This document shows positions 2,960 through 61,130 of a stretch of DNA of 64,000 nt, piece after piece. Position numbers and translations under genes: made by a program. Origin of the DNA: Octopus vulgaris (Eukaryota); the NCBI GenBank assembly GCA_951406725.2, contig OX597814.1, positions 98,270,001 to 98,334,000 of the forward strand, in the 5' to 3' direction. The notes under the pieces are model-generated. The model did not search any database and was not told the DNA's origin. It saw nothing but the letters and a program-made list of their open reading frames with translations. Every line of letters begins with the position of its first letter. The first letter of the stretch is position 1.

Positions 2960-3650
2960 AACTCATGGCTCGCCACTTCATCTTACGTGGGTATCCCCTC
3001 ACCACTATCCACACCGCCCTTACTAGAGCACGTTCCGTGGACCGTGCATCTGCTTTCTCCCCACGAACCCACCCTGCAGTCTCCCGCCTCTCTTTACCCC
3101 TCACTTATCACCTACCACCCTACTTCTCCATAATCATCATCATTGTTCGACCGTGAAAAGACTACCTCTCCAACACACCATTCTCCGAGCTTTCCGGCAT
3201 CTCCAGTCCGACCCGTCCACTTCACACATCTTCCCTAACCGACACCTCCCCTCCTCCAAACGAGCCCACAACCCACGAGACCTCTTGGTCCAAGGCTTCT
3301 TCTCCAACCCAAACTCCCAACCTGACTCGTTCCCCTGCCCACCCACGCTGCCGCACTTGCCCTTACCTCTCCAACACCACACTCCTCACCGGCACCTATC
3401 ATCGACCCTATCACATCACCGACTCCTTCACCTGCACTTCTACCAACATCATCTATTGCATCTTTTTTCTGTCTGCCATTCTCTGTACATCGGATAAATG
3501 GGACGCCGCTTGGCTGACCGGTTCGCGGAACACCTCCGAGACATCCGCCTCGGCAATGATATCCCGGTCTCACACCATTTCCGCTCTACCGGTCACTCTT
3601 TGCAACACCTGTCTGTGTTCGGATTGTCATTGCACAATAGCCATCCAGAC
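2960..3650 (+). mobile_element. Penelope-like element remnant: RT C-terminal linker and GIY-YIG endonuclease (frameshifted)
   Basis: Translations ...FILRGYP..., FTCTSTNIIYCI, CHSLYIG*MGRRLADRFAEHLRDIR and PVSHHF...GHS are typical PLE GIY-YIG motifs. Confidence 0.85.
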
Positions 3651-3946
3651 TACACACACACGCATACATACACATACATAACGCGACGCGTTATTAGAAG
3701 GTTCAGGGAGCAGTATTTAGTCATCTATGAAATTACGATATGCTATTACTATATAAATCCAATCATGAAATCAAAGGTTAAGCTAAATGGTAGATTCCAC
3801 GTCACATTACATAATGTGAAAAGAAGAAAACATTTTTGACATTTCTAATATTTTTGACAAAGGCATAAAAATATCAAATATATGTATCGCACAAACCCAC
3901 CACACCCACCCACCCACACATGTATATACATATATACATGTGTGTG

Positions 3947-13015: not shown

Positions 13016-13154
13016 AATATATATATATATAATATTAGGGAATAAATTATTATTCCAACCTTACAGGCAAAATTCTGTATAATAATATTAAACCGAATTT
13101 CGTAATATATAATATATAATATAAGCGAGAATGAAGCAACAAGAATGGATAGGT

Positions 13155-13245
13155 TTTTAGTACAATCGTTTCATACAAGGACAGGTTTTATTAAAAGTTG
13201 CAAAAATTACAGCATATAAACGTGTCCCGTACTCATCAGCTAAAA
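13155..13245 (-). ncRNA. Type I hammerhead ribozyme motif (left arm)
   Basis: Mirror copy of 13897-13987. Confidence 0.8.
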
Positions 13246-13896
13246 TACATGTGAATTCTCTAGACATCCTAGTGGTTGAGGCTATACTCATGAAGTAATG
13301 TAGATAATTAAGTAACATAAACAGATTTCTAAAGTTCATTAAAGTTCTTTAAAGATGATGTACAGTCTTATCACAGAATTTTAAAAAAGTCTTAATAGCA
13401 TCACAGAGAAGGTGACCTAATCCATAGTGCACATATGAATTTCCAGAGATATGATGAGGGATTACATACTCACAGAAGACAAATTTATCCATTGTTAATT
13501 ACAACGAGGTGGGTTTCAATTCCTGCTTATTAGCATTACAGAGAGGGTGAATTAATCCTTTGTATAGATGCACAATTTCCAATGGTGTAGGTGTAAATTT
13601 CCAAGGAATTTCACCCACCTCGTTGAAACCCACCTCGTTGTAATTAACAATGGATAAATTTGTCTTCTGTGAGTATGTAATCCCTCATCATATCTCTGGA
13701 AATTCATATGTGCACTATGGATTAGGTCACCTTCTCTGTGATGCTATTAAGACTTTTTTAAAATTCTGTGATAAGACTGTACATCATCTTTAAAGAACTT
13801 TAATGAACTTTAGAAATCTGTTTATGTTACTTAATTATCTACATTACTTCATGAGTATAGCCTCAACCACTAGGATGTCTAGAGAACTCACATGTA

Positions 13897-13987
13897 TTTT
13901 AGCTGATGAGTACGGGACACGTTTATATGCTGTAATTTTTGCAACTTTTAATAAAACCTGTCCTTGTATGAAACGATTGTACTAAAA
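13897..13987 (+). ncRNA. Type I hammerhead ribozyme motif (right arm)
   Basis: ttttag CTGATGA gtacgggaca...tgtccttgtat GAAA cgatt GTA ctaaaa; 6-bp stem I, long stem II, short stem III. Confidence 0.8.
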
Positions 13988-14150
13988 ACCTATCCATTCT
14001 TGTTGCTTCATTCTCGCTTATAATCACCCCACATTACTGTATTGTTAAATCAGTATAGTTTTTTTGGTGCATCTAAGTTAGGTACCATATTCAAGTAAAT
14101 TCATTTAAATTAACTTGAATCTTTATTGCTTTTTAATATATAATATATGT

Positions 14151-14734: not shown

Positions 14735-15076
14735 ATATATAGAGAGAGAGATATGTAATTTAAAAATATAAATAAAAAATAAGGTTTAAATATAAATAAT
14801 ATATATATAAATGTAAAAATATACATATATATATATATATACATATAAAAATATATAAAAAATGATATATACATATTTATACATATCTATTGGATGGTCG
14901 TTGACTGTTCATGAGTTCCATCACCCTTTGATGCGTCTTATTTTTCACCCTTCTCACTAAGCAAGCCTGGTGGGGTTGCCAGTTTAGTCACCGACAACCG
15001 AACTGTGCAACAGGTTGTTACCTGTAGCAATCAAGAGCGACCTGACATATATAATCGTATAAATATATATATATTT

Positions 15077-15264
15077 GATAAAGATAGTTATGTCCACTCT
15101 ATGGGGTTACCCTGAGTTTCACGTCCATAAAACGCTTAGCTTTACAGCTTTTCTTCAGGCCTTAATGACTGGTCATTAGCTTCTGAAGAAACGCTGTGAA
15201 GTTAAGCGCTTTTTAGACGTGAAACCAAGGGTAACCACATAGACCGGCCATAGCTATCTTTATC
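15077..15264. mobile_element. 188-bp hairpin element with a hammerhead core on each strand
   Basis: Centre taatgac-tg-gtcatta. Plus strand CTGAAGA (15183)...gacgt GAAAC caagg GTA acc; minus strand CTGAAGA...gacgt GAAAC tcagg GTA acccc. Confidence 0.8.
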
Positions 15265-15325
15265 TAATTACTCTACTGCTCTATAACTTGGAGTGTTGCT
15301 CCTACTTCAGATTTATGATTTCCCG

Positions 15326-18153: not shown

Positions 18154-18224
18154 CACAGACATATAGATAGATAAATAGATTTACAGACAGACTGACAGAC
18201 AGATATATATATATATATATATAC

Positions 18225-18273
<49 letters not shown>

Positions 18274-18275
18274 AT

Positions 18276-18553
18276 AAACAATTGCAGCTTGGAAGGTGTT
18301 TGTAAGCCTTTTATGAAACACACAAAAGCCGTTCGATTCACTTCAACATTTAAGTTTAATATTTTCGTCGCTTTAAGACCGCGACCTGTTCACTGACAAA
18401 AATCCGTGCTGCATACAAATTGCCAGTGAACAGGTCGCGGTCTTAAAGCGACGAAAATATTTTGACAACTTAAACTTAAATGTTGAAGTGAATCGAACGA
18501 CTTTTGTGTGTTTCATAAAAGGCTTACAAACACCTTCCAAGCTGCAATTGTTT
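18276..18553. mobile_element. Fold-back element carrying a variant hammerhead
   Basis: 18276-18398 vs 18420-18553 inverted; the left arm has a ~10-nt deletion. Confidence 0.88.
18420..18468 (+). ncRNA. Minimal hammerhead with G3-C8 swapped core (GUGAACA)
   Basis: ttgcca GTGAACA g gtcgc ggtcttaaa gcgac GAAA ata TTT tgacaa; the opposite arm has ttgtca, a perfect stem I partner for tgacaa. Confidence 0.65.
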
Positions 18554-18612
18554 TCGTTTCACCACACGATCTCAGATCAAATCACTTGCTATGCAAGTAC
18601 ATCTCCGTAATG

Positions 18613-18693
<81 letters not shown>

Positions 18694-21549: not shown

Positions 21550-21650
21550 CGGGGTGAGTACTTGATAATTATAAGCACCTGTGTATACCGTTTGGTGGTG
21601 TAGGTGGTGGAGTAAATTGATCAAAATAAAAACATGATGCCAAGGATTCA

Positions 21651-21728
21651 GCGGTACATATGTTTCGGGCCTTTATTAGACAGATTTATAACAATGCATA
21701 ATGTATGTCTGTGGCCTTCTTCAGCCGC
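21651..21728 (-). ncRNA. Type I hammerhead ribozyme motif
   Basis: Mirror copy of 22001-22078. Confidence 0.8.
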
Positions 21729-22000
21729 GCAAACAGCTTCCACAAGGACATGTGTTACATCAAAAATTCTTGGTTGGGGATGCAAATCCTCTCATTCGCG
21801 TACGACATAATGCGGCAACAGCATAGAATTGAAGCGTCCATCTCTTTCTTCTCTCAATGTAGAATCTACATTGAGAGAAGAAAGAGATGGACGCTTCAAT
21901 TCTATGCTGTTGCCGCATTATGTCGTACGCGAATGAGAGGATTTGCATCCCCAACCAAGAATTTTTGATGTAACACATGTCCTTGTGGAAGCTGTTGTGC

Positions 22001-22078
22001 GCGGCTGAAGAAGGCCACAGACATACATTATGCATTGTTATAAATCTGTCTAATAAAGGCCCGAAACATATGTACCGC
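22001..22078 (+). ncRNA. Type I hammerhead ribozyme motif
   Basis: gcgg CTGAAGA a ggcc acaga...tctgt...ggcc c GAAA catat GTA ccgc; palindromic stem III ACATATGT. Confidence 0.8.
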
Positions 22079-22111
22079 TGAATCCTTGGCATCATGTTTT
22101 TATTTTGATCA

Positions 22112-22171
<60 letters not shown>

Positions 22172-30396: not shown

Positions 30397-31968
30397 TGAA
30401 AAGGAACACACGAATTGATATATATGGAAAAAGTCAAGGTAGAAAATGTTAAAATACTTTTATAAAAAACATTTCAGTACCATAAAGTAGTTGTATACTG
30501 TCAACTTAATGCGACAGTCCCATAAAGGAAATCATACTACTGCTATTTAGCCCTAGGAAGCAGCAACGCTTCCCGTCGGTCTTGACACATTTCTGTGTCC
30601 TTATGTTTACAAGGGGGAGACAAGCGAAGCCAGCACTTAGGGACGAGATTCTGAGTCTTTCCTCGTTATCAGTCTGGGGTAGCATGGCCTGCTGGTTGGA
30701 GATGCCTATCTAGCTCTTGTAAACATATAAGAAATCTACAAAAATAGAAACAATGCATTTCTAAATATCTCAGAGAGATTTATGCCGTAGTGATACGATA
30801 AAGTAGTTGTATACTGTCAACTTAATATGACAGTCCCATGAAGGGAATCATACTATTGCTATTTAGTCCTAGGAAGCAGCAATGCTTCCTGTCGGCCTTG
30901 ACACATTTCCTGTATACTTATGCTTAGAAGGGGAGACAAGCACCCCCACCCAGCTAAGCCTGCAACCAGAGATTAGTTTTCATAGTATTCAAATACAAGG
31001 GGCATGTTCCTTGTTTCTGCCTGTCTCTGTCTCTCTTATTTACTCTTGTAGGGGATTATTTCTATTTGTGTAATATGCATCAAGTTTTACATTATTAAAA
31101 GTTGATATATGCTTAAATAGGTTTTTGGTTACCGAAAATCCAATCCTTATTATTTTATTATTAATTATAGTACTATATCTATTAGAAGTGAAATGCTTAT
31201 CTATGATAGAACGAATTACTCGGATAAGGTTAGTTCTTATCATTTTGCCGTATGGTAAGATAAGCCAGATATTATCATCCTTTTTATTGAGGCATTTCAC
31301 GTTGTTTTCGTGTGTATGTTTTATATATGGAAGATGTTACGTTTTAAGGATTTTTTTTAGTTTTCTTTTATTGTTTAGTCTGTAGTTAGGTCCATGTTGA
31401 TTGTAATTCATATTTATATTATCGTTATGATTGCAATTATTTCTATTTCTATGATTATGCTTATTAATGTTAATTTTCGGTTCATTTGTATTTATTATAA
31501 TCAAGTCTTCATTTACCTTGTTATTTGTCTGTGGGTTATCATTATGTGTGTCTAATTTAATTTTCTGTTTGTATCCTGCCTTAGCTAATGCTGAGTTATA
31601 ATAATCTTTATTTATATTAAAAATTTTTTGACTAGATGAAAGGTAATTAATTCTACGTTGAATATTTTTAACTAAGCAATTTGTGATTGTTTTATGATGA
31701 TAACTTTCTAAAATGGAAAATATCCCTTGCATTTGAAAGCTATGAAAATATTTTTTAAAAATACATTTCATTTAATTTAAAATTATAATAAAATAATAAA
31801 ATAAGAAGGATTGGATTTTCGGTAATTATTTTTCATACTTTACACTAAGTTGAAAAAGTCGCAATGACTGAAACCGGTACTAAAATGTTCTTCATGGTAA
31901 AATTATTTTAGCATTTTCTACCTTGTCTTATTTTCCTTATACATATCAATTCGCGTGTTCCTTTTCAT
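30397..31968 (-). mobile_element. Penelope-like element remnant bracketed by inverted terminal segments
   Basis: Minus ORFs: YHHKTITNCLVKNIQRRINYLSSSQKIFN...YNSALAKAGY and NIWLILPYGK...IIDKHF...IRIGFSVTKNL. 30397-30481 is inverted vs 31876-31966; 30482-30630 is duplicated at 30798-30945. Confidence 0.8.
31848..31881 (+). ncRNA. Minimal hammerhead with U3-A8 core (UUGAAAA)
   Basis: ag TTGAAAA agtc gcaat gact GAAA ccg GTA ct; perfect stem II, palindromic stem III ACCGGT, stem I only 2 bp. Confidence 0.6.
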
Positions 31969-40169: not shown

Positions 40170-40363
40170 GATATATATATATGCACACACATACATACTG
40201 GATTGAAAATGAATTGACTAACACTGACGACAGAAACGCACATACACGTACTTCTTAGTAGCACCCGGATACACACACAAACATACACACATACACACAC
40301 ACACGCGCGCGCGCATATACATACATATACACATGCATAGGTGCATAATCTACACAAATTATG

Positions 40364-40403
<40 letters not shown>

Positions 40404-40410
<7 letters not shown>

Positions 40411-40829
40411 CATAGTTTCTCTGGTAAGTACGTAACTTCTCTCCTCTTCTGCCACTTGCGGTCATACAACCTCTACTATTTTTAAGACCCGACACAGCCA
40501 AAATACATTTCTTCATTACATTTTCTTTTTAAACTTTTCTTCTTGTACACTTTTCATTCGAGCTATCTAACTTTCTGAAGGAGGACCTGAAGCCCGAAAC
40601 GTCAAAGACATTTTAGTTTTCTGGAGAAATACTTCCATGAAAGGGGAATTTAACCCTCCATCAATTAATTTGGATAACAAAAAATGATAAAAGTATAACA
40701 AAAACTGCTTTGAGATCAGATATTTGCTATGTGTACCTTTAGCGATATCTACTAACAGAATACTCTTCGTCGCTACTCTCATACGCTTTCTCATAATTAT
40801 GTTACATTGCATGTACGAATATTCCTTCG

Positions 40830-40895
<66 letters not shown>

Positions 40896-41092
40896 CATAG
40901 TTTCTCTGGTAAGTACGTAACTTCTCTCCTCTTCTGCTTCTTGCGGTCATATAACCTCTACTATTTTTAAGACCCGACACAGCCAAAATACATTTTTTCA
41001 TTACATTTTCTTTTTAAACTTTTCTTCTTGTACACTTTTCATTCGAGCTATCTAACTTTCTGAAGAAGGACCTGAAGCCCGAAACGTCAAAG
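40404..41092 (+). repeat. Two ~204-bp direct repeats 485 bp apart, each ending in a minimal hammerhead
   Basis: 40404-40607 and 40889-41092 are near identical and each is preceded by (TA)n. Confidence 0.9.
41056..41092 (+). ncRNA. Minimal hammerhead (second copy at 40571-40607 has core CTGAAGG)
   Basis: cttt CTGAAGA a ggacctgaagccc GAAAC GTC aaag; stem III reduced to the ACGT palindrome. Confidence 0.7.
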
Positions 41093-42231
41093 AATATAGT
41101 ATTTAGATGCTTTGATATATAGATTATAAAGTCTTAGAAGATAATACGAATATTGTACATGCCCAAGCACTGCTATAGACACTTCGAAGTGTTATATAGA
41201 AAAATAACTCGTTTGTAATAGTTATGTATATCAGTACAGTTTTCTCAGTAAAAACAATGCGGGTTTAAAACTTTATTTTAAAGATCTATGTTTGTTTATT
41301 TTTTACACACTTTTGTGAAGTTCAACTTGAATTGTTACAATTCTGAGTGAAACCTCTTTCTGGAACAAACTGAAAACTGTCAGCATCGTTTTAAAGCAAT
41401 TTATCCACAATATAGGGAATTAACTTGACTTTATTTACTTTGGATATTAATAAACTTGAGCTGGGTATGTGTGTTAGTAACTGAAATACATGGATATATT
41501 TGTTTCGGAGGTGTGCTTGCCAAACAAGTGATTTAACCCGAAACAGTGCGTTGACATTAAAATAATTGTAGCGTGGAAGATACACGATTAGCTGTTCGGA
41601 ATCACACAGGCTTAATTTTGCTTATATAGTATTTGCTGTATGTTGTCAACATTTTCATCGCTCGAACTTTGACATCACATTAGAAAATAATAAATCTTTA
41701 CGTGAAATTTACAGTCTTTGTTTGTTCTTATATGACTAACGTGTATTTTACACTGCTTTGCATTGACATTACCATTATACACTTTGAAAACTATCATACA
41801 GGTGTATTAGATTAGACGTATCTGCAGTTAAAGCATATTACGACCAAAACAAGGGAAATTCTGTGTAGCCTTTTGACATGTTAGAAATAGCACCAGCATT
41901 GCTTCATACTGTACTACATTCGCGTATTAAAGAACGAAAATAACGTGAGATTATGTGATCGTAGACAGCTCTAAGTAAACAGGAAAACCACGACTAGAAT
42001 GGCAATAAGAAGGATGTTCGCTCAGAGTTGACCCCCGCTCCCTGCCACCACCGCCAACAACAGCAGCAACAACAACCACAACAACAACAGCAGCAGCAGT
42101 AGTCAATTGAAATGGATCTCTTTCCATCAACTCTAAAAATCTCGTTCACCAATCATTCTCCCACACATCCGTTCATTCATACATCCATGCATGCATCCTT
42201 CTATTCATACATCAATCCATGCAGTCATCTA

Positions 42232-48788: not shown

Positions 48789-48856
<68 letters not shown>

Positions 48857-48859
<3 letters not shown>

Positions 48860-49196
48860 AGGCAGAATGCTAAATGTAAAGTAAATTTTAATAAAAATGG
48901 GTGTATGAAAAATTAAAAAAGAAAAAATAATAAATCAGGCCAGCTTTCATTGCAAGGCAAATTTTCAAGATTTGGAAGGGGAAAAATATTTTTATAAAAT
49001 TGAGGAAGGGGAAAAAATTTACAATGCTTTTAAAAAAAAAAATAATAATACATATATACAAAAATTAATAAATAAGTATACCTTTACATTGTAGAGTCAT
49101 TATGCTTTTAGAGTTCAATAATAGTCCTTGGAAAAACTTCTTTGGAGGATTAGGATGGATGCGTTTAAATGTAGTGTATATTTTGAAAGAGTGGGA
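48857..49196 (-). mobile_element. PLE-like 3' end family (second copy 54058-54212)
   Basis: Shared taaggcagaatgctaaat...ttggaagggg block; carries a U3-A8 hammerhead; minus-strand GLLLNSKS peptide upstream. Confidence 0.65.
48932..48973 (-). ncRNA. U3-A8 hammerhead motif (cleavage triplet decayed)
   Basis: Minus strand aaatc TTGAAAA t ttgc ctt gcaa t GAAAG ctgg CCT gattt. Confidence 0.55.
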
Positions 49197-49199
49197 TCA

Positions 49200-52100
49200 C
49201 CCCACTCTTTCAGAAGGGAAGAAAAAAGGTGAATGAGAGCAAGAAAGCAAAAAGATCAGTGATGACCACACCACATCTTGAGTGGACCAAAGAAGACGTG
49301 AAGAGACGCGAACACACAGAGACACAGAGAAAGCGACGCTGAGTGGACCGAAGACGTAGAGGTGACCTTGACAAGAGAGGAAAACTGTTGTAAAAGGTGA
49401 TACAACAGAGGTCAATCAAGTAAAATAGTTCGACTTACGATAACTGAGAGGAGGATTGAAAATAATGGCGGCGGACGATATGAAAAGAGAATTGGAACAC
49501 GAACACACAAAGTCAGAAAGAACGACGTTGCTTGGACTGAAGAAGACGTGGAGTTGACCTTGACAGTAAAGCAACACTGTTTTCAATTGTGATAGAACAG
49601 GGGTCATTTAAGTAAAAAAGTTCGACTTACGATGACTGACAGGTGGATTGAAAAATGGTAGCGGACGGCATGAACAGAGGAGTGGAGCGATGCGAACACA
49701 CAGAGACAGAGAGGGAAATGATGAAGCATGGAACAATGGCGGCGGACGGCATGAAAAAAGCCAAATTTACGGACGTACGCCATGGCATCCTGTGCCGTTT
49801 ATTCATGTATCGAGGTGAGCCAGTGTAGCTTGACGAAAGTATAATATATTGTCCAACGTTGGTAGCGTCACCTTCACGCTGCAACGCATCCCGAAGACCA
49901 GCGTAATTAGTAGCTCTCAGCTCGGTTTGATGGGTACGTATGTAGAGAAGACGTTCCACCTTAATCTTTGTGTTCGCCAACTTGTAGCCAACTTGTAGCC
50001 AGTCTAACCTGTCTTTCTTCCGCAGTTTCGTTAAGGATTGGTTGTTGTCGTCGACTGCGCTGGGCAGAAAGTCGGGCCTCTCTTGCACCTGGGGTTTCAG
50101 TCAGACGTGCAGGTTGGTTTCTATCATGCTGGACTGAAAGACGGGCTTCTCTTACAGCTGGGGGTCTCCTTCATGCTTGAGCGTTGGTCTCTATCACGTT
50201 GGGCTGAAAGACGAGACTTCCTTGCAGCTGGAGTCTCCCTCAAGCGTGAGCGTTGGCGTTGAATGTGTCGGGTAGAGAGGCAAGCTTCCGTTGTTTCAGG
50301 ATTTTCATCTAGACGTAAGTTGTTGGAGTTATTTCCCTGGTCAGCAAGAGGAACCTCCCTTGCTTCTAGAGTCTCCGACAGAAGAAACACTTGATCAGAA
50401 GTAGCCTAATTGTGGCAAAAGTAGAAATGACCGACATAGTTAAGATTTTAAACGCAGAAAAAATTAGATTTTGGGGGTCAGACACAAAATTCAATGAAAA
50501 AATAAAGCAGGGTACATAAATGAAATTAATTTTGACAAATATATGGCACAATTTTCCCGATATAATAGAATTGTGGATGCATTTTAAATAAATTTTCATA
50601 AAGGTTAAAGCTCTGATACCAACCTTTTTATCAATTTTCTCCAATGTCAGTATAAAAAATGAATATTCAAAATTTTCCTGATCGACTTCAATGTCATTGA
50701 TGTCGACACGTGCACTGTTTTCCTATGACGCTATAAAGCAAATCCGTGTTGTTTAAGAATGCGTTCTTGGGAAGCTGAAGTGTAGCTTATTTTTGAAGAG
50801 TTAATAATGTTATTTAATAGCGAAATAAGTGAAATAGTGATGCCCAATATAATTAAATGTAACGCCTAACGTAACGCAGTAATAATTGAGAACGTAGTGT
50901 TTATGTTTACCGAAAAAAGGAATTGCCGAATATTTGGGAGCGTAAGAATCAAAATTTAAAGCTTTTATAACATTTAGCACAAATTTTAGGAAATTAAAAA
51001 CTTTGTCATATAGGTTGCAAATCTTCTTAAAACTAACCAAATGTAGGTAAGGCTCTCAAAATTTGTTAAAAAGAAAATAATATTCGATATCGGTAAAAAG
51101 AGTATGTGAACATCAAGACGTGAGCGTTTGTTATTGACGCCCAGGTCGGCCACGGGGGCCTCCCTTGCCTCTGGAATGTCCTCCAAAAGCAAGTTTTGGT
51201 TGTGAGGAGTAGCCAGAGACGTAGCCTGATTGCAAAAGATATACAGAATAATCAGCCAATGTTCAGAAATTCTACAACGTTGTTACGAAACAAATAGATA
51301 CAAACGAAAATATGGGGGGGCAAGTCGAAATTTTGGAGAATACGTAGTCTTACCGGCGAAATAGCGGTCTCGCTGATGTGCAAGTTAAATTTTACAGAGT
51401 GATAAAGCAGATGTTTAATTTGTAAACATGTAAAAATGAACTAGAGCTTATTATCTAACTAACAATTATGTTTTAAAGCCGAATTAATGTTTATCAATGG
51501 AAAAATACCAATAAAGAACGTACCTGTGCACGCACCTCCTTCCTTCGCAATTTCAGGACTTTATTTCGTTTCTTAGAAAAGACTGAGCGTTTTCGGTTTG
51601 GCATATCGTATAACGATACTAAAAAGGCATGAAAAATAAGGCCTTAAGTTAATATGCTTAACAACTAACAAAAACGTATTGGTTTACATTGGATGAAGTG
51701 TCAACCAAAAAGTGGAAAGATAATGAAATTAATAAATATAGCTCATTGAAAAATTAATGTTCAAAGAAGTAGTAAACCATTGTAAATTTTTTGAGAAATC
51801 GAGAGGCATTGAATTAAGATGCCTAAGTAGTAATGGGATAAAAGTAATTCAGCTTTAATAATGGACCAATCTATCCATGCAAATAAGGATAAAGTAAAAA
51901 TGTAATAGTATAGTATTGTGTAATACTATCGACGCATCGTTAATTAAAAAATCGATAAGCATTCTCGGTGAAACGTGAAAAAATCACGCCTGTCGTCTCG
52001 TGACACTAAATCGAGAAAATAAAAATAACCGTAAATTTGATTATTTTTGTACTCATCGGCGGAATTTTTGAACAAGTCAAAATCTAAAAAATATATCTCA

Positions 52101-53109: not shown

Positions 53110-54040
53110 AATGCATATATGGGTACAGGACACCAAAATAACGTCGAACACAATGAGAAACGAAAACATAGACACAAAACCAAGGAAATGGACATTTCTT
53201 TTAAACAACGAAAAAATAGAGTACAGGACATACACAACAAGGAAAATTCCCCTTCTTCAGTCGCCTTAGTTTCATCTACTCCACATTTCGAAGGTCAAGG
53301 CGATACATGACTTCAATAAAACTTTCCTTCCCGCGAAAATCAAATTAAATAAAAATTTGTGATTTTTTTGCGGAGAGGTAAAAATGGTAACAAAAACAGG
53401 ACAGTAACGACAGTACAAAATATAAACAGTAAAATACAGGACACGGAGAATAACAGTAACACAAACAAGAAGGGCTGTTAAGCCAAACGAGATAAAAAAT
53501 TTTTACGAACGCTATTTTTTGAGAACGGCAGGGAGCAACAGATTTTACCGTCTCTACTTGAAGGAAGCCAGGAGAAGAAAGACAGTGGTAGCCATCTCAT
53601 CGCGTGACCGCGACGGGAGGGAGGAGGAGGAGTAAGAGAAAGGGAGAGAAAAAAGGGAATGGTTGTAGAGAAAAGAATGAAGAATGGGAGAGAGAGAGGG
53701 GGAGACAGTAAGGTAGAAGAAAAGGAAAGCCAAAAGAATGAAGGCTGAGAAATGGAGGGGGAGAGAAAGGTTAAGAGTGCGCATCATTATTAATATTAAG
53801 AACAATCTTACTTAGAAATGGATGCGTGCGTTCCGTCATATAATAAATTAATAAATAAAACATATGCATATATACATACATATATGTACGTACCTACCTC
53901 TACATGTATATATACATGCATATATGGGTACAGGACACCAAAAAAACGTCGAACATAATGAGAAACGAAAACATAAACACAAAACCAAGGAAATGGACAT
54001 TTCTTTTAAACAACGAAAAAACAGAGTACAGGACATACAA
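53110..54040. repeat. PLE-like non-coding element with a ~125-bp direct repeat (53110-53235 / 53915-54040)
   Basis: Duplicated atgcatatatgggtacaggacacc...gtacaggacataca; related in reverse to 22860-22995. Confidence 0.7.
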
Positions 54041-54129
54041 AAGGAGAGGAAAAAATTATAAGGCAGAATGCTAAATTGAAAGTAAATTTTAATAAAAATG
54101 AGTGTATGAAAAATTAAAAAGGAAAAAAG

Positions 54130-54171
54130 AAATCAAACCGGCTTTCATTGCAAGGCAAATTTTCAAGATTT
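54130..54171 (-). ncRNA. Minimal hammerhead with U3-A8 core
   Basis: Minus strand aaatc TTGAAAA t ttgc ctt gcaa t GAAAG ccgg TTT gattt; perfect stems I and II. Confidence 0.68.
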
Positions 54172-54231
54172 GGAAGGGGAAATTTTTTGTTTTTAAATTG
54201 AGGAAGGGGAAAAAGTCAAACGAAGTCAATC

Positions 54232-54520
54232 AACTGGAGGATTTTAATGTTAGGGATGAAACAGACTGGCAAACAAAGAGCTCTCTTAGGCATTTCAGTG
54301 TGGAGAATATGAATAGCGAAGGTATAATGCTCTTAGATCTTTGCGATGAATATGATCTTTGCATTGCAAGCACTCTTTGCACAAAGGTGATGGCACAATA
54401 ACATGAATACACCCGAGAGCTAAGGTTTGACACTTGGATTATATTACCATCCGCAAACATATCTGACATTTTTAATGCCAAGTCTGTTCATGGATCGGAG
54501 TGCTGGAAAGACCACTGAAA
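54232..54520 (+). mobile_element. RTE-type LINE AP-endonuclease fragment
   Basis: DFNVR...ENMNSEGIMLLDLCDEYDLCIAST...T*IHPR...HLDYII. Confidence 0.75.
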
Positions 54521-56849: not shown

Positions 56850-57200
56850 TCAGTTTTCTTTTGTCAGAGCCTCCTGATAAACCACGTTCCTTGTGCGCTC
56901 ATGATTGCCAAGAATGAAGAGTTTATGTGGATTTCCAACTCGAGAACAGGCTACGTACAATTGACCATGACTGAAAACAGGTTGTGACAGGTTAATGCCT
57001 ACAATGTCCAGTGATTGTCCCTGTGATCTGTTGATTGTCATCGCGAAGCATAGTTTTATCGGAAATTGAAAGCGTTTAAACTGAATGGGAACATCAGAGG
57101 GTGAAATACTCATTTTAAGTATCATTTTGATTGTTCCTACAAATGGTCCACTCAAAATTTCAGCAGTTATAACATGGCTTTGAATCCTCCTAATAACCAT
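56850..57200 (-). pseudogene. Helitron PIF1-like helicase C-terminus
   Basis: FKRFQFPIKLCFAMTINRSQGQSL...VFSHGQLYVACSRV (SF1 motifs V and VI). Confidence 0.93.
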
Positions 57201-57218
57201 TTATATATATAACCATAG

Positions 57219-57254
<36 letters not shown>

Positions 57255-57258
<4 letters not shown>

Positions 57259-57320
57259 CTATAAATCTCACTAAAACTAAAGAGGCGACCCAGTGACGGA
57301 GAGAGTGAGGAGAAAAGTTA

Positions 57321-57367
<47 letters not shown>

Positions 57368-57520
57368 AACTATGAATCTCACTAAAACTAAAGAGGCGAC
57401 CCGAGTGATAACGGCGAGAGTGAGAAAAGTTACGAAATATATATATATATATATATTCTAACTATGATCTCAATCTAAAACTAAAGAGGCGTCGACGGGA
57501 GAGAGTGAGGAGAAAAGTTA

Positions 57521-57559
<39 letters not shown>

Positions 57560-58082
57560 ATGAATCTCGATCTAAAATTAAAGAATGGCGTTTCATACAA
57601 GCATATTAAAAGGCGACGGGAGAGAGTGAGGAGAAAAGTTACGCATATATATATATATATATATATATATAGCATCACAGAGAAGGTGACCCAATCCATA
57701 GTGCACATATGAATTTCCAGAGATATGATGAGGGATTACATACTCACAGAAAGCAAATTTATCCATTGTTAATTACAACGAGGTGGGTTTCAATTCCTGC
57801 TTATTAGCATTACAGAGAGGGTGAATTAATCCTTTGTATAGATGCACAATTTCCAATGGTGTAGGTGTAAATTTCCAAGGAATTTCATATTCACAGGCGA
57901 TAAATTTATCAATGGTTGAACACAATGAGGTAGGTATCAAATCTTGCTATATGATTAGGTATTTGCCACATTAATCACATTACTGCTATTTACAAGAGTA
58001 ATATATATATATATATATCTAACTATGAATCTCGATCTAAAACTAAAGAGGCGGCGACGGTAGAGAGTGAGGAGAAAAGTTA

Positions 58083-58121
<39 letters not shown>

Positions 58122-58183
58122 AACTATGAATCTCGATCTAAAACTAAAGAGGCGGCGACGGGAGAGAGTGAGGAGAAAAGTTA

Positions 58184-58248
<65 letters not shown>

Positions 58249-58312
58249 CTAACTATGAATCTCGATCTAAAATTAAAGAGGCGGCGACGGGAGAGAGTGA
58301 GGAGAAAAGTTA

Positions 58313-58363
<51 letters not shown>

Positions 58364-58423
58364 CTATGAATCTCGATCTAAAATTAAAGAGGCGGCGCCG
58401 GGAGAGAGTGAGGAGAAAAGTTA

Positions 58424-58456
<33 letters not shown>

Positions 58457-58516
58457 CTATGAATCTCGATCTAAAACTAAAGAGGCGTCGACGGGAGAGA
58501 GTGAGGAGAAAAGTTA

Positions 58517-58577
<61 letters not shown>

Positions 58578-58637
58578 CTATGAATCTCGATCTAAAACTA
58601 AAGAGGCGTCGACGGGAGAGAGTGAGGAGAAAAGTTA

Positions 58638-58688
<51 letters not shown>

Positions 58689-58750
58689 AACTATGAATCT
58701 CGATCTAAAACTAAAGAGGCGTCGACGGGAGAGAGTGAGGAGAAAAGTTA

Positions 58751-58789
<39 letters not shown>

Positions 58790-58851
58790 AACTATGAATC
58801 TCGATCTAAAACTAAAGAGGCGTCGACGGGAGAGAGTGAGGAGAAAAGTTA

Positions 58852-58903
<52 letters not shown>

Positions 58904-58963
58904 CTATGAATCTCGATCTAAAACTAAAGAGGCGGCGACGGTAGAGAGTGAGGAGAAAAGTTA

Positions 58964-59006
<43 letters not shown>

Positions 59007-59068
59007 AACTATGAATCTCGATCTAAAACTAAAGAGGCGGCGACGGTAGAGAGTGAGGAGAAAAGTTA

Positions 59069-59107
<39 letters not shown>

Positions 59108-59169
59108 AACTATGAATCTCGATCTAAAACTAAAGAGGCGGCGACGGGAGAGAGTGAGGAGAAAAGTTA

Positions 59170-59240
<71 letters not shown>

Positions 59241-59302
59241 AACTATGAATCTCGATCTAAAACTAAAGAGGCGGCGACGGGAGAGAGTGAGGAGAAAAGT
59301 TA

Positions 59303-59341
<39 letters not shown>

Positions 59342-59403
59342 AACTATGAATCTTGATCTAAAATTAAAGAGGCGGCAACGGGAGAGAGTGAGGAGAAAAG
59401 TTA

Positions 59404-59460
<57 letters not shown>

Positions 59461-59529
59461 CTATGAATCTCGATCTAAAACTAAAGAGGCGTCGACGGGA
59501 GAGAGTGAGGAGAAAAGTTACGCATATAT

Positions 59530-59604
<75 letters not shown>

Positions 59605-59670
59605 ATGAATCTCGATCTAAAACTAAAGAGGCGTCGACGGGAGAGAGTGAGGAGAAATGTTACGCATATA
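57255..59670. repeat. Satellite of about 19-20 units: ~66-bp constant block plus variable (TA)n
   Basis: Unit taactatgaatctcgatctaaaactaaagaggcg(g/t)cgacgggagagagtgaggagaaaagttacgc(at)n. Confidence 0.95.
57670..58000 (+). mobile_element. Fragment of the 13120-14022 element family inside the satellite
   Basis: 57670-57887 is near identical to 13396-13613. Confidence 0.9.
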
Positions 59671-59674
59671 TATG

Positions 59675-61130
59675 GCGACTGATAACACTGTGCCACACAT
59701 AAGAATGCTTTATACATGCATTAACCTCATCGGCTCTAGTGCCTGCTCGGACAACAGGAAGAGTTTGTCGAAAATCTCCTGCCATGAGAAACGTAGCTCC
59801 ACCCATTATTTTTGTATTGTGACGCAAATTTGTTGGAGAGTTCTGTCAAGAGCCTCAAACAATTACTCATTGTAGCCTCATCCCAAATAAAAAGACTGCA
59901 TTCACGAAGAGTCTTGCTCTTGAGGAACTACGATCTATATTACATATAGGATTATCTTTCTTTCCAATGTCCATGGGCAATTTGAATGCACCATGTGCCG
60001 TACGGCCGCCTTGAAGCAGTGTCGCTGCAATACCACTTGAGGCACATGCAATGACAAATCGACGTTCAGCGCGCAGCTTTGCGAGAATCAAATTGATAAC
60101 GAAAGTTTTACCAGTACCACCTGGAGCATTCAAAAAGAACAGCTTTCCTTGGTTCAATCTAACGCTGTCAATAATTTCATTATAAATCTCTCTTTGTTCG
60201 TGCAAAAGTCTTGGTTCATCTCGCGTACTTGTTTCCGTCAATTCGGCAACGTTGTAGTTTTTTTCTGACATGTATTCAACATCCAAAGGCGCTTCATGAT
60301 GGACAGGTGTTGGCAGATGGAATTCACTTAAACCGCGTATAACATAGCGTCTGATGTGTCTGTCCATGTCGATTAATGCCTCATTATAAACATCGTCGTT
60401 GCCATCACGTAGCGCTAAATTAGCCTGTATGTCCTTTGATAGGCTCTGTCTGAACGATTCCCAAAGGTTAAAAGGGTTGCTGGGATTACAGTGGATTAAT
60501 ATGCTACAAAACAATCGACGCATTTGCCATGGCAGTTTACAATTTGAGGCCTCTGCTAATGTCCTGTGTAAGTGGTCGTCATTGAGAAGAAGTCCGCGCC
60601 TCAAACATGCTTCCCTGTAAGTGGCGCAGATGATACCATCATCCGTGCGAAGATCAGCAAAAGACTTTCGTCCAGTAACTACATGAAGTAGCATTCTCAA
60701 AGAGATTTCCTGTTTGGTAGGATGAATATTATACACACGTCCAATGACGTTCTTCCTAGAAACACCGGGCCAATTGTCAAGTTCTGTTCCATGTGACCTG
60801 CGCTTCCAATTATTATTGTTGTATGTGTAATATTCCGGTACTTCAGGGTAAATGAGAGTAGCAGCAAACTCATCAACTGAACACAATTTAAAAAATGCTG
60901 TAAGCGTAGTCCCTTTTGGATTTTCAATGACTTGACGTGCATGTTTCTCTGTGAAGTAAACCAGCTGTCTCTTCTGTAAATGAACATTCAGGTGGAAAAC
61001 TGATGGTGAGCTTAGATGAATCTCGTATCCAAAAATGCGCCACGCTGCATAATTGTACATACCTACCGAAAACGTTGTGCGGCCACACCAAAACACGGCC
61101 ATATCATCGCCCTTATTAATGTACTTGGGT
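59675..61130 (-). pseudogene. Helitron RepHel fragment (post-Rep region, helicase motifs I-III)
   Basis: AAWRIFGYEIH, TTLTAFF, TYREAC..RGLL..D, APGGTGKTF (Walker A), ASSGIAATLLQGGRTAH, then frameshifted GDFRQTLPV. Confidence 0.95.

Follow-up and report, generated by a model that had tools for sequence, protein, structure and literature searches.

The window, a 64-kb stretch of microsatellite-rich animal DNA from Octopus vulgaris, carries on its minus strand two partial copies of one repeat, each containing a motif laid out like a type I hammerhead ribozyme. The features are the following:

54042 to 54214, minus strand: repeat copy A, with a U/C-rich leader, the hammerhead motif and an AU-rich tail of ~90 nt
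54130 to 54171, minus strand: type I hammerhead-like motif of copy A, with all core positions, U3-A8, U10.1·U11.1 and a UUU site
54160 to 54166, minus strand: core U3 U4 G5 A6 A7 A8 A9, with no other letter at ≥5% in any of four sequencing runs
54147 to 54159, minus strand: stem II of copy A, a U·U mismatch followed by 4 bp and a 3-nt loop; variants only at 54149 and at loop position 54154
54136 to 54143, minus strand: self-complementary stem III block from A15.1 to U16.1, AGCCGGUU in copy A; a predicted dimer helix
54134 to 54135, minus strand: triplet UUU, with the predicted cut after U17 (54135) placed by hammerhead numbering
48855 to 49040, minus strand: repeat copy B, the same element as copy A; 5' boundary approximate
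48932 to 48973, minus strand: damaged hammerhead-like motif of copy B; position 16.1 (48938) is C, and 16.2 and 15.4 are changed as well

The first-pass annotation had placed the motifs at 54171 to 54130 (copy A) and 48973 to 48932 (copy B), read on the minus strand, and had described them as two members of one family with a 5-bp stem I and a 4-bp stem II. Both strings lie at these coordinates, the two stems are present in both copies, with a 3-nt loop on stem II, and the motif pair sits within a direct repeat (54055-54214 versus 48854-49016) of 89% identity. The first 29 letters of the motif are identical in the two copies, and this string, searched with at most 3 mismatches, gives 2 matches in the window versus 0 in 100 shuffles. 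Pattern and similarity searches reveal no third copy of the repeat in the 64 kb. Copy B extends ~25 nt further on the 5' side and ends in a (TA)n microsatellite; its extra 5' letters resemble the loose-end consensus found behind 54214 in run X7.

In standard numbering, copy A has U3 at 54166, A8 at 54161, A9 at 54160, G12 at 54146, A15.1 at 54143, U16.1 at 54136, and U17 at 54135, and none of the 11 conserved core positions is missing. Both copies have core positions 3-9 and 12-15.1, with the Watson-Crick 3-8 pair in the form U3-A8. Two features are missing from the earlier description: stem II is closed in both copies by a U10.1·U11.1 mismatch (54159/54147 in copy A), and the C16.1 of copy B breaks the A15.1-U16.1 pair. 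This pair and the NUH site are kept in copy A and in the family majority, where the site reads UUU, and are lost in copy B, which is predicted to be inactive because C16.1 removes the A15.1-U16.1 pair. Copy A retains every core letter and is a lone fragment without a known function.

The state of the family can be read from contigs of 4 of the 24 listed sequencing runs (X1, X2, X3, and X7), placed on 53990-54290. Contigs were included at 80% likeness and differences were tabulated from 5%; such tables favor shared words, omit copies less than 80% alike, and carry no linkage between positions. The summed depth over the motif region in X1 amounts to ~5,000 to 45,000, versus 16 to 47 for single contigs, which indicates a high-copy repeat, depth being no measure of copy number. 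In none of the runs does another letter reach 5% at positions 3-9, 10.1, 11.1, 13, 14, 15.1, 16.2, 16.1, and 17 or in stem I, and variation at this level is thus absent in the four runs from 10 of the 11 core positions and from every one of the 10 positions in stem I. Since neither position 3 nor position 8 shows a variant of ≥5% in any of the four runs, U3-A8 is a family-wide state and not local decay; the scenario of a CTGAAGA core decayed in these copies only, which the first-pass annotation had raised against itself, is contradicted by the same tables. U3-A8, the U·U mismatch, and the UUU site are the family norm. The origin of U11.1 from C11.1 by CpG decay was considered and finds no support at this level, as no C reaches the 5% threshold at 54147, although a rarer form with C is possible.

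At position 15.2, A makes up 47 to 57% of the depth; with this letter the pairing to U16.2 is retained, and the stretch between 15.1 and 16.1 reads as a perfect palindrome, AACCGGUU. The family stem III therefore takes the forms AACCGGUU and AGCCGGUU, both with a UUU site. The ancestral palindrome AGCCGGCT with a CUU site, which had been proposed by merging the two copies, does not agree with the runs, C at 16.2 staying below 5% in all four. The interior of the palindrome is the most variable part, with other letters at 16 to 32% at 16.3 and at 10 to 24% at 16.4, most of them pair breaking. G12 reads A in 3.5 to 9.4%. At one position of stem II, variants of both kinds occur: a change from A to G leaves a wobble pair, whereas C or U in place of A disrupts pairing. 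Only one-sided changes are seen in stems I and II, with no double-sided compensatory change among the variants of ≥5% in the four runs. Core and stems I and II together show 2 variable positions in 31, versus 19 in 117 for the flanks, a difference that is not significant (p = 0.13).

The AU-rich tail at 54056-54121 has 2 to 6 times the depth of the motif in X1, X3, and X7 and about one-third of it in X2; X2 and X3 share an organism code despite their opposite ratios, and library bias or a shared tail may account for the imbalance. Contigs from metagenomes, prokaryote genomes, and viruses, when scanned by pattern, yielded 0 matches in each set.

Chance occurrence was assessed with five type I hammerhead descriptors, which had been loosened after the candidate was seen so as to admit it. 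All five find copy A, and the loosest also finds a canonical hammerhead at +41060. The repeat-masked window was shuffled 150 times, block by block, with local dinucleotide content kept. In these shuffles three descriptors found nothing and the other two gave hits in 2 of 150; the descriptors being fitted post hoc, the true chance rate is somewhat higher. An Rfam search with E values up to 1 returned 146 matches with no hammerhead family among them, a result that carries little information because the canonical hammerhead at +41060 is missed too. The motif, whose core is A/U-rich in an A/T-rich genome, folds as a monomer no better than its shuffles (z = +0.79). The canonical motif at +41060 also folds poorly (z = +1.02), and the z-score test is therefore weak and nondiscriminating. 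The stem III block is predicted to form a self-duplex at approximately -10 kcal/mol. The double-hammerhead dimer is predicted at -12.9 kcal/mol, whereas a structure with the stem III duplex and stem II but no stem I reaches -16.7 kcal/mol. Three helices can form around the core, but the stems are weak and the predicted optimum is a fold other than the hammerhead.

The 3' side of copy A, at 54042, adjoins the tail of another, far more abundant repeat without a gap, and the family contigs end at the same position. The 5' side of copy A is cut by a fragment at 54215-54400 that is presumably LINE-like, as judged from familiar motifs; Pfam gives no significant match for this region. Other family copies run on past 54214. 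The family end and the start of the abundant-repeat tail share a word of ~10 letters (AATTTT then CCTT) at 54041-54060, where copy A joins them, which suggests a template switch or a preferred target. The very abundant repeat itself lies at 53225-53345 on the minus strand, with its tail also at 53916-54041 and a tail depth of up to about a million. It contains hammerhead core words in noncircular order, with helices of 7 bp and 5 bp in matching places.

An intact upstream open reading frame (ORF) of a Penelope-type element (PLE), for which the first-pass annotation had proposed to look, was not found near the two copies. Pfam identifies no PLE ORF beside or between the copies in 33 scanned frames, 27 of them from the 112 listed for 47 to 57 kb. 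Four peptides from elsewhere in the window, presumed to be PLE-like from familiar motifs and unnamed by Pfam, gave no tblastn hit at 47 to 57 kb. Within the 5.2-kb spacer lie Helitron pieces (Pfam Helitron_like_N, E = 2.7e-9) together with other repeats. The two copies were also considered as the end repeats of one 5.2-kb PLE, an arrangement rejected on the content of this spacer, which includes no PLE ORF. No target-site duplication was found at the copies, by eye or by search. Further Helitron remnants with Rep and PIF1 helicase lie at 49627-50100, 56850-57200, and 59867-61129, all on the minus strand, with a tandem array of ~110-bp units separating two of them at 57200-59700. About 150 bp upstream of copy B, at 49183-49210, lies a perfect 12-bp hairpin with a 4-nt loop.

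Elsewhere in the family, the arrangement may be partly tandem or inverted, as single contigs contain a tandem joint in one case and an opposite-strand joint in another. One contig each in X1 and X3 jumps back from 54197 to 54125, forming a local tandem of the motif-bearing segment, and a single X1 contig folds back; single contigs of X2, X3, and X7 carry a copy without the motif. By analogy, the local tandem, the fold-back, and the motif-less copies would fit the habits of PLEs without proving a PLE origin. For PLEs, a bias toward (TA)n and insertion next to other copies have been reported (PMC8557442, PMC6765202).

Besides the U3-A8 family, the window contains two further families of PLE-style hammerheads. 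The earlier statement that C-G, G-C, and U-A all occur at the 3-8 pair in this one window is borne out, with C3-G8 at +41060 and G3-C8 at +18426 and -18393. The C3-G8 motif belongs to a pair of plus-strand copies of 264 bp at 40345-40608 and 40831-41093, which are 95% identical and each end in a PLE-style hammerhead; the one at 40575 has G at position 9. The G3-C8 motifs (cores at +18426 and -18393) lie in the two arms of a head-to-head palindrome within (TA)n at 18180-18656. Each arm shows the extra nucleotide, G10.1-C11.1, the palindrome AATATT, and U17, and the side of stem I that is damaged differs between the arms. Broken ORF pieces at 3157-3836 (plus strand) and 31040-31771 (minus strand) presumably represent a PLE linker and GIY-YIG region, as judged from familiar motifs; Pfam assigns them to no named family. 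Fold-back insertions at 13120-14022, 15073-15268, and 21613-22116 bear CUGAUGA or CUGAAGA words on both arms and are possibly further inverted PLE ends. In the portion of the literature covered, G3-C8 appears only as a laboratory variant; a natural family with this pair may be more unusual than the U3-A8 one.

The first-pass annotation had presented U3-A8 as a third Watson-Crick solution for the 3-8 pair. As a novelty this does not hold, as Perreault et al. described a natural C3-G8-to-U3-A8 covariation that is active in vitro in 2011 (PMC3088659), and a Penelope variant has been published as well (PMC4209133). Perreault et al. also reported a natural stem II that starts with a U10.1-U11.1 mismatch, and U·U is the best tolerated mispair at this position (PMC3088659). 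Both features recur in the octopus family; in the section of that work covered here they are reported one by one, whereas in this family they stand together in a high-copy animal repeat without a visible tertiary contact. Cervera and de la Peña (2014) found ~1,300 U3-A8 motifs in Schistosoma by way of the Cercyon PLE, and most published PLE-type motifs likewise stand alone (PMC4209133). A hand count of the 56 rows of Fig. S3 in PMC4209133 gives U3-A8 in 2 rows, one of them with a UUGAAAA core in a PLE, and U17 in 24, with a UUU site in Crassostrea; in the figure as rendered in text, U·U at 10.1-11.1 occurs in 0 of 56.

The closest published relative is found among the Cercyon hammerheads of Schistosoma mansoni (PMC4209133). 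The motif Schistosoma mansoni(4) shares the type I layout, the identical UUGAAAA core, and a short stem I, and the Cercyon hammerheads of this species show the same palindromic stem III, U17, U-rich and AU-rich flanks, and mostly dispersed single copies. In contrast, Schistosoma mansoni(4) has G10.1-C11.1 and Schistosoma mansoni(3) has U-A where the 4-bp stem II of the octopus family is closed by U·U; the stem III block comprises 4 nt there and 8 nt here, and no PLE ORF is linked here. The published PLE consensus consists of a U-rich 5' flank, a palindrome, NUH, and an AU-rich 3' flank (PMC4209133), and a palindromic stem III is a hallmark of PLE hammerheads. The U3-A8 family has the U-rich 5' flank, the AU-rich 3' flank, and a high, dispersed copy number, and the palindrome at 15.2-16.2 with loop 3 is present, as AGCCGGUU in copy A. 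G10.1-C11.1 after the extra nucleotide is highly conserved in PLE hammerheads, the published exceptions being U-A and A-U; both octopus copies have U·U, with no variant of ≥5%.

A self-complementary 15.1-16.1 block of at least 8 nt is shared with the long-stem-III PLE hammerheads of Aedes, Drosophila willistoni, and Saccoglossus, which differ in having C3-G8 and a paired 10.1-11.1 (PMC4209133). PLE hammerheads with such long palindromes are predicted to act as dimers, as is the family here (model reviewed in PMC6765202). Animal non-LTR retrozymes (bioRxiv 10.64898/2026.07.22.740005) are similarly noncoding, hammerhead bearing, and linked to PLEs, but occur as tandem monomers, of which this window has none. 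PMC8557442, in the passages covered, contains no description of the octopus family. A combination of U3-A8 and U·U in one hammerhead was likewise not found in the texts covered on PLE and natural hammerheads; it may have been described among small PLE variants.

The two copies are probably truncated end fragments of an abundant repeat that carries, family-wide, a minimal type I hammerhead of the PLE end-repeat kind. This reading starts from what is directly seen, namely, the sequence anatomy, U3-A8 and U·U throughout the family, the self-complementary stem III block, and the high abundance. The most likely description of the locus is an ordinary remnant of a Penelope-type element with a known core variant, given that the U3-A8 swap was already published in 2011. 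With no PLE ORF found beside the copies, no double-sided covariation, and weak stems, both the PLE carrier and the ribozyme activity are putative. By analogy, the motif would most likely work like a PLE minimal hammerhead; strict membership is incomplete, with G10.1-C11.1 replaced and with an ORF link and cutting that are presumed.

In the mechanism proposed here, the short stem III would be unstable in the monomer, as in published PLE hammerheads. Pairing via the 8-nt palindrome would take place in the parent element between two motifs, located either on a single tandem transcript or on separate ones, and would complete stem III and permit a slow cut after U17. Cutting would probably need the protein of the element or a chaperone. 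Short end pieces, truncated at the 5' side, may then have been copied by the PLE enzyme into microsatellites and next to other elements. For the anole PLE, hammerhead cutting occurs only with protein present, ribozyme-dead mutants still insert in vitro, so that cutting is not required, and no RNA-seq reads end at the cut site (PMC11167929). The dispensability of cutting for insertion in vitro makes a passenger role for the hammerhead possible.

A chance look-alike, in which an A/U-rich stretch of some other repeat, such as a MITE or the tail of a SINE, spells the core and the two copies reflect one event that was then copied, is quite unlikely. Three simultaneous departures from the standard consensus (U3-A8, U·U, and U17) speak for it, as do the weak stems, the lack of double-sided covariation, the nonsignificant excess of conservation, and the missing PLE ORF nearby. 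Against this, even loose descriptors yield hits in no more than 2 of 150 shuffles, the common 15.2 variant perfects an 8-nt palindrome exactly from 15.1 to 16.1, and each departure has a published precedent (PMC4209133, PMC3088659). Similarly improbable is a fragment of a nonautonomous retrozyme, a tandem, circular-RNA repeat of a few hundred nucleotides with a hammerhead, in place of the end of a protein-coding PLE. It would account for the lack of a linked ORF and for the one local tandem of the motif in the contigs; however, the window has no tandem monomer, 160 to 190 bp are shared by two dispersed partial copies 5.2 kb apart, and stems I and II are short, without a visible loop-loop contact. 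Most improbable of all is a coding constraint, suggested by the AUG that U11.1 forms inside the motif and that is followed by 19 to 20 codons in both copies. The three stem III differences between the copies are all synonymous in this frame, and the ORF of the anole PLE also begins inside its hammerhead (PMC11167929). Family variants, however, are synonymous in 5 of 23 cases versus 19% expected under neutrality, which argues against any constraint on the AUG frame, and one of them removes the start codon; a short reading frame from this AUG is thereby largely ruled out. An intron from 54138 to ~54071 was set aside as well, since the would-be donor G is the most variable position, although the acceptor is plausible by eye.

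A different kind of alternative accepts hammerhead descent and holds that the family spread after catalysis was lost, with the fold merely carried along or serving the PLE protein only as a signal for binding or initiation. It overlaps partly with the preferred reading, sharing the origin and differing in function, and is considered unlikely. The stacking of weakening features, the common G12-to-A and palindrome-breaking variants, and the anole precedent of insertion with a dead ribozyme and no RNA-seq ends at the cut site (PMC11167929) agree with such a loss. On the other hand, variation at the 5% level is absent from 10 of 11 core positions but present in the interior of stem III, and the U·U is the mispair that position 10.1-11.1 tolerates best (PMC3088659).

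As U3-A8 PLE hammerheads are already published, some interest lies only in the family-wide pairing of U3-A8 with U·U; as one more example of a U3-A8 Penelope-type hammerhead, the family carries little weight alone. That a high-copy family spread with U3-A8, U10.1·U11.1, and a UUU site while still cutting, as a dimer or with a retroelement protein, is a tentative possibility. If true, it would provide a natural example of a hammerhead that lacks tertiary contacts and yet tolerates several weakening changes at once, and, together with the C3-G8 and G3-C8 families, a natural series for examining how far Penelope-type elements need catalysis. Should the family cut, an element able to multiply would have combined U3-A8 with a U·U at the foot of stem II, which is relevant to whether the transposition of PLEs depends on their hammerheads or the ribozymes are passengers.
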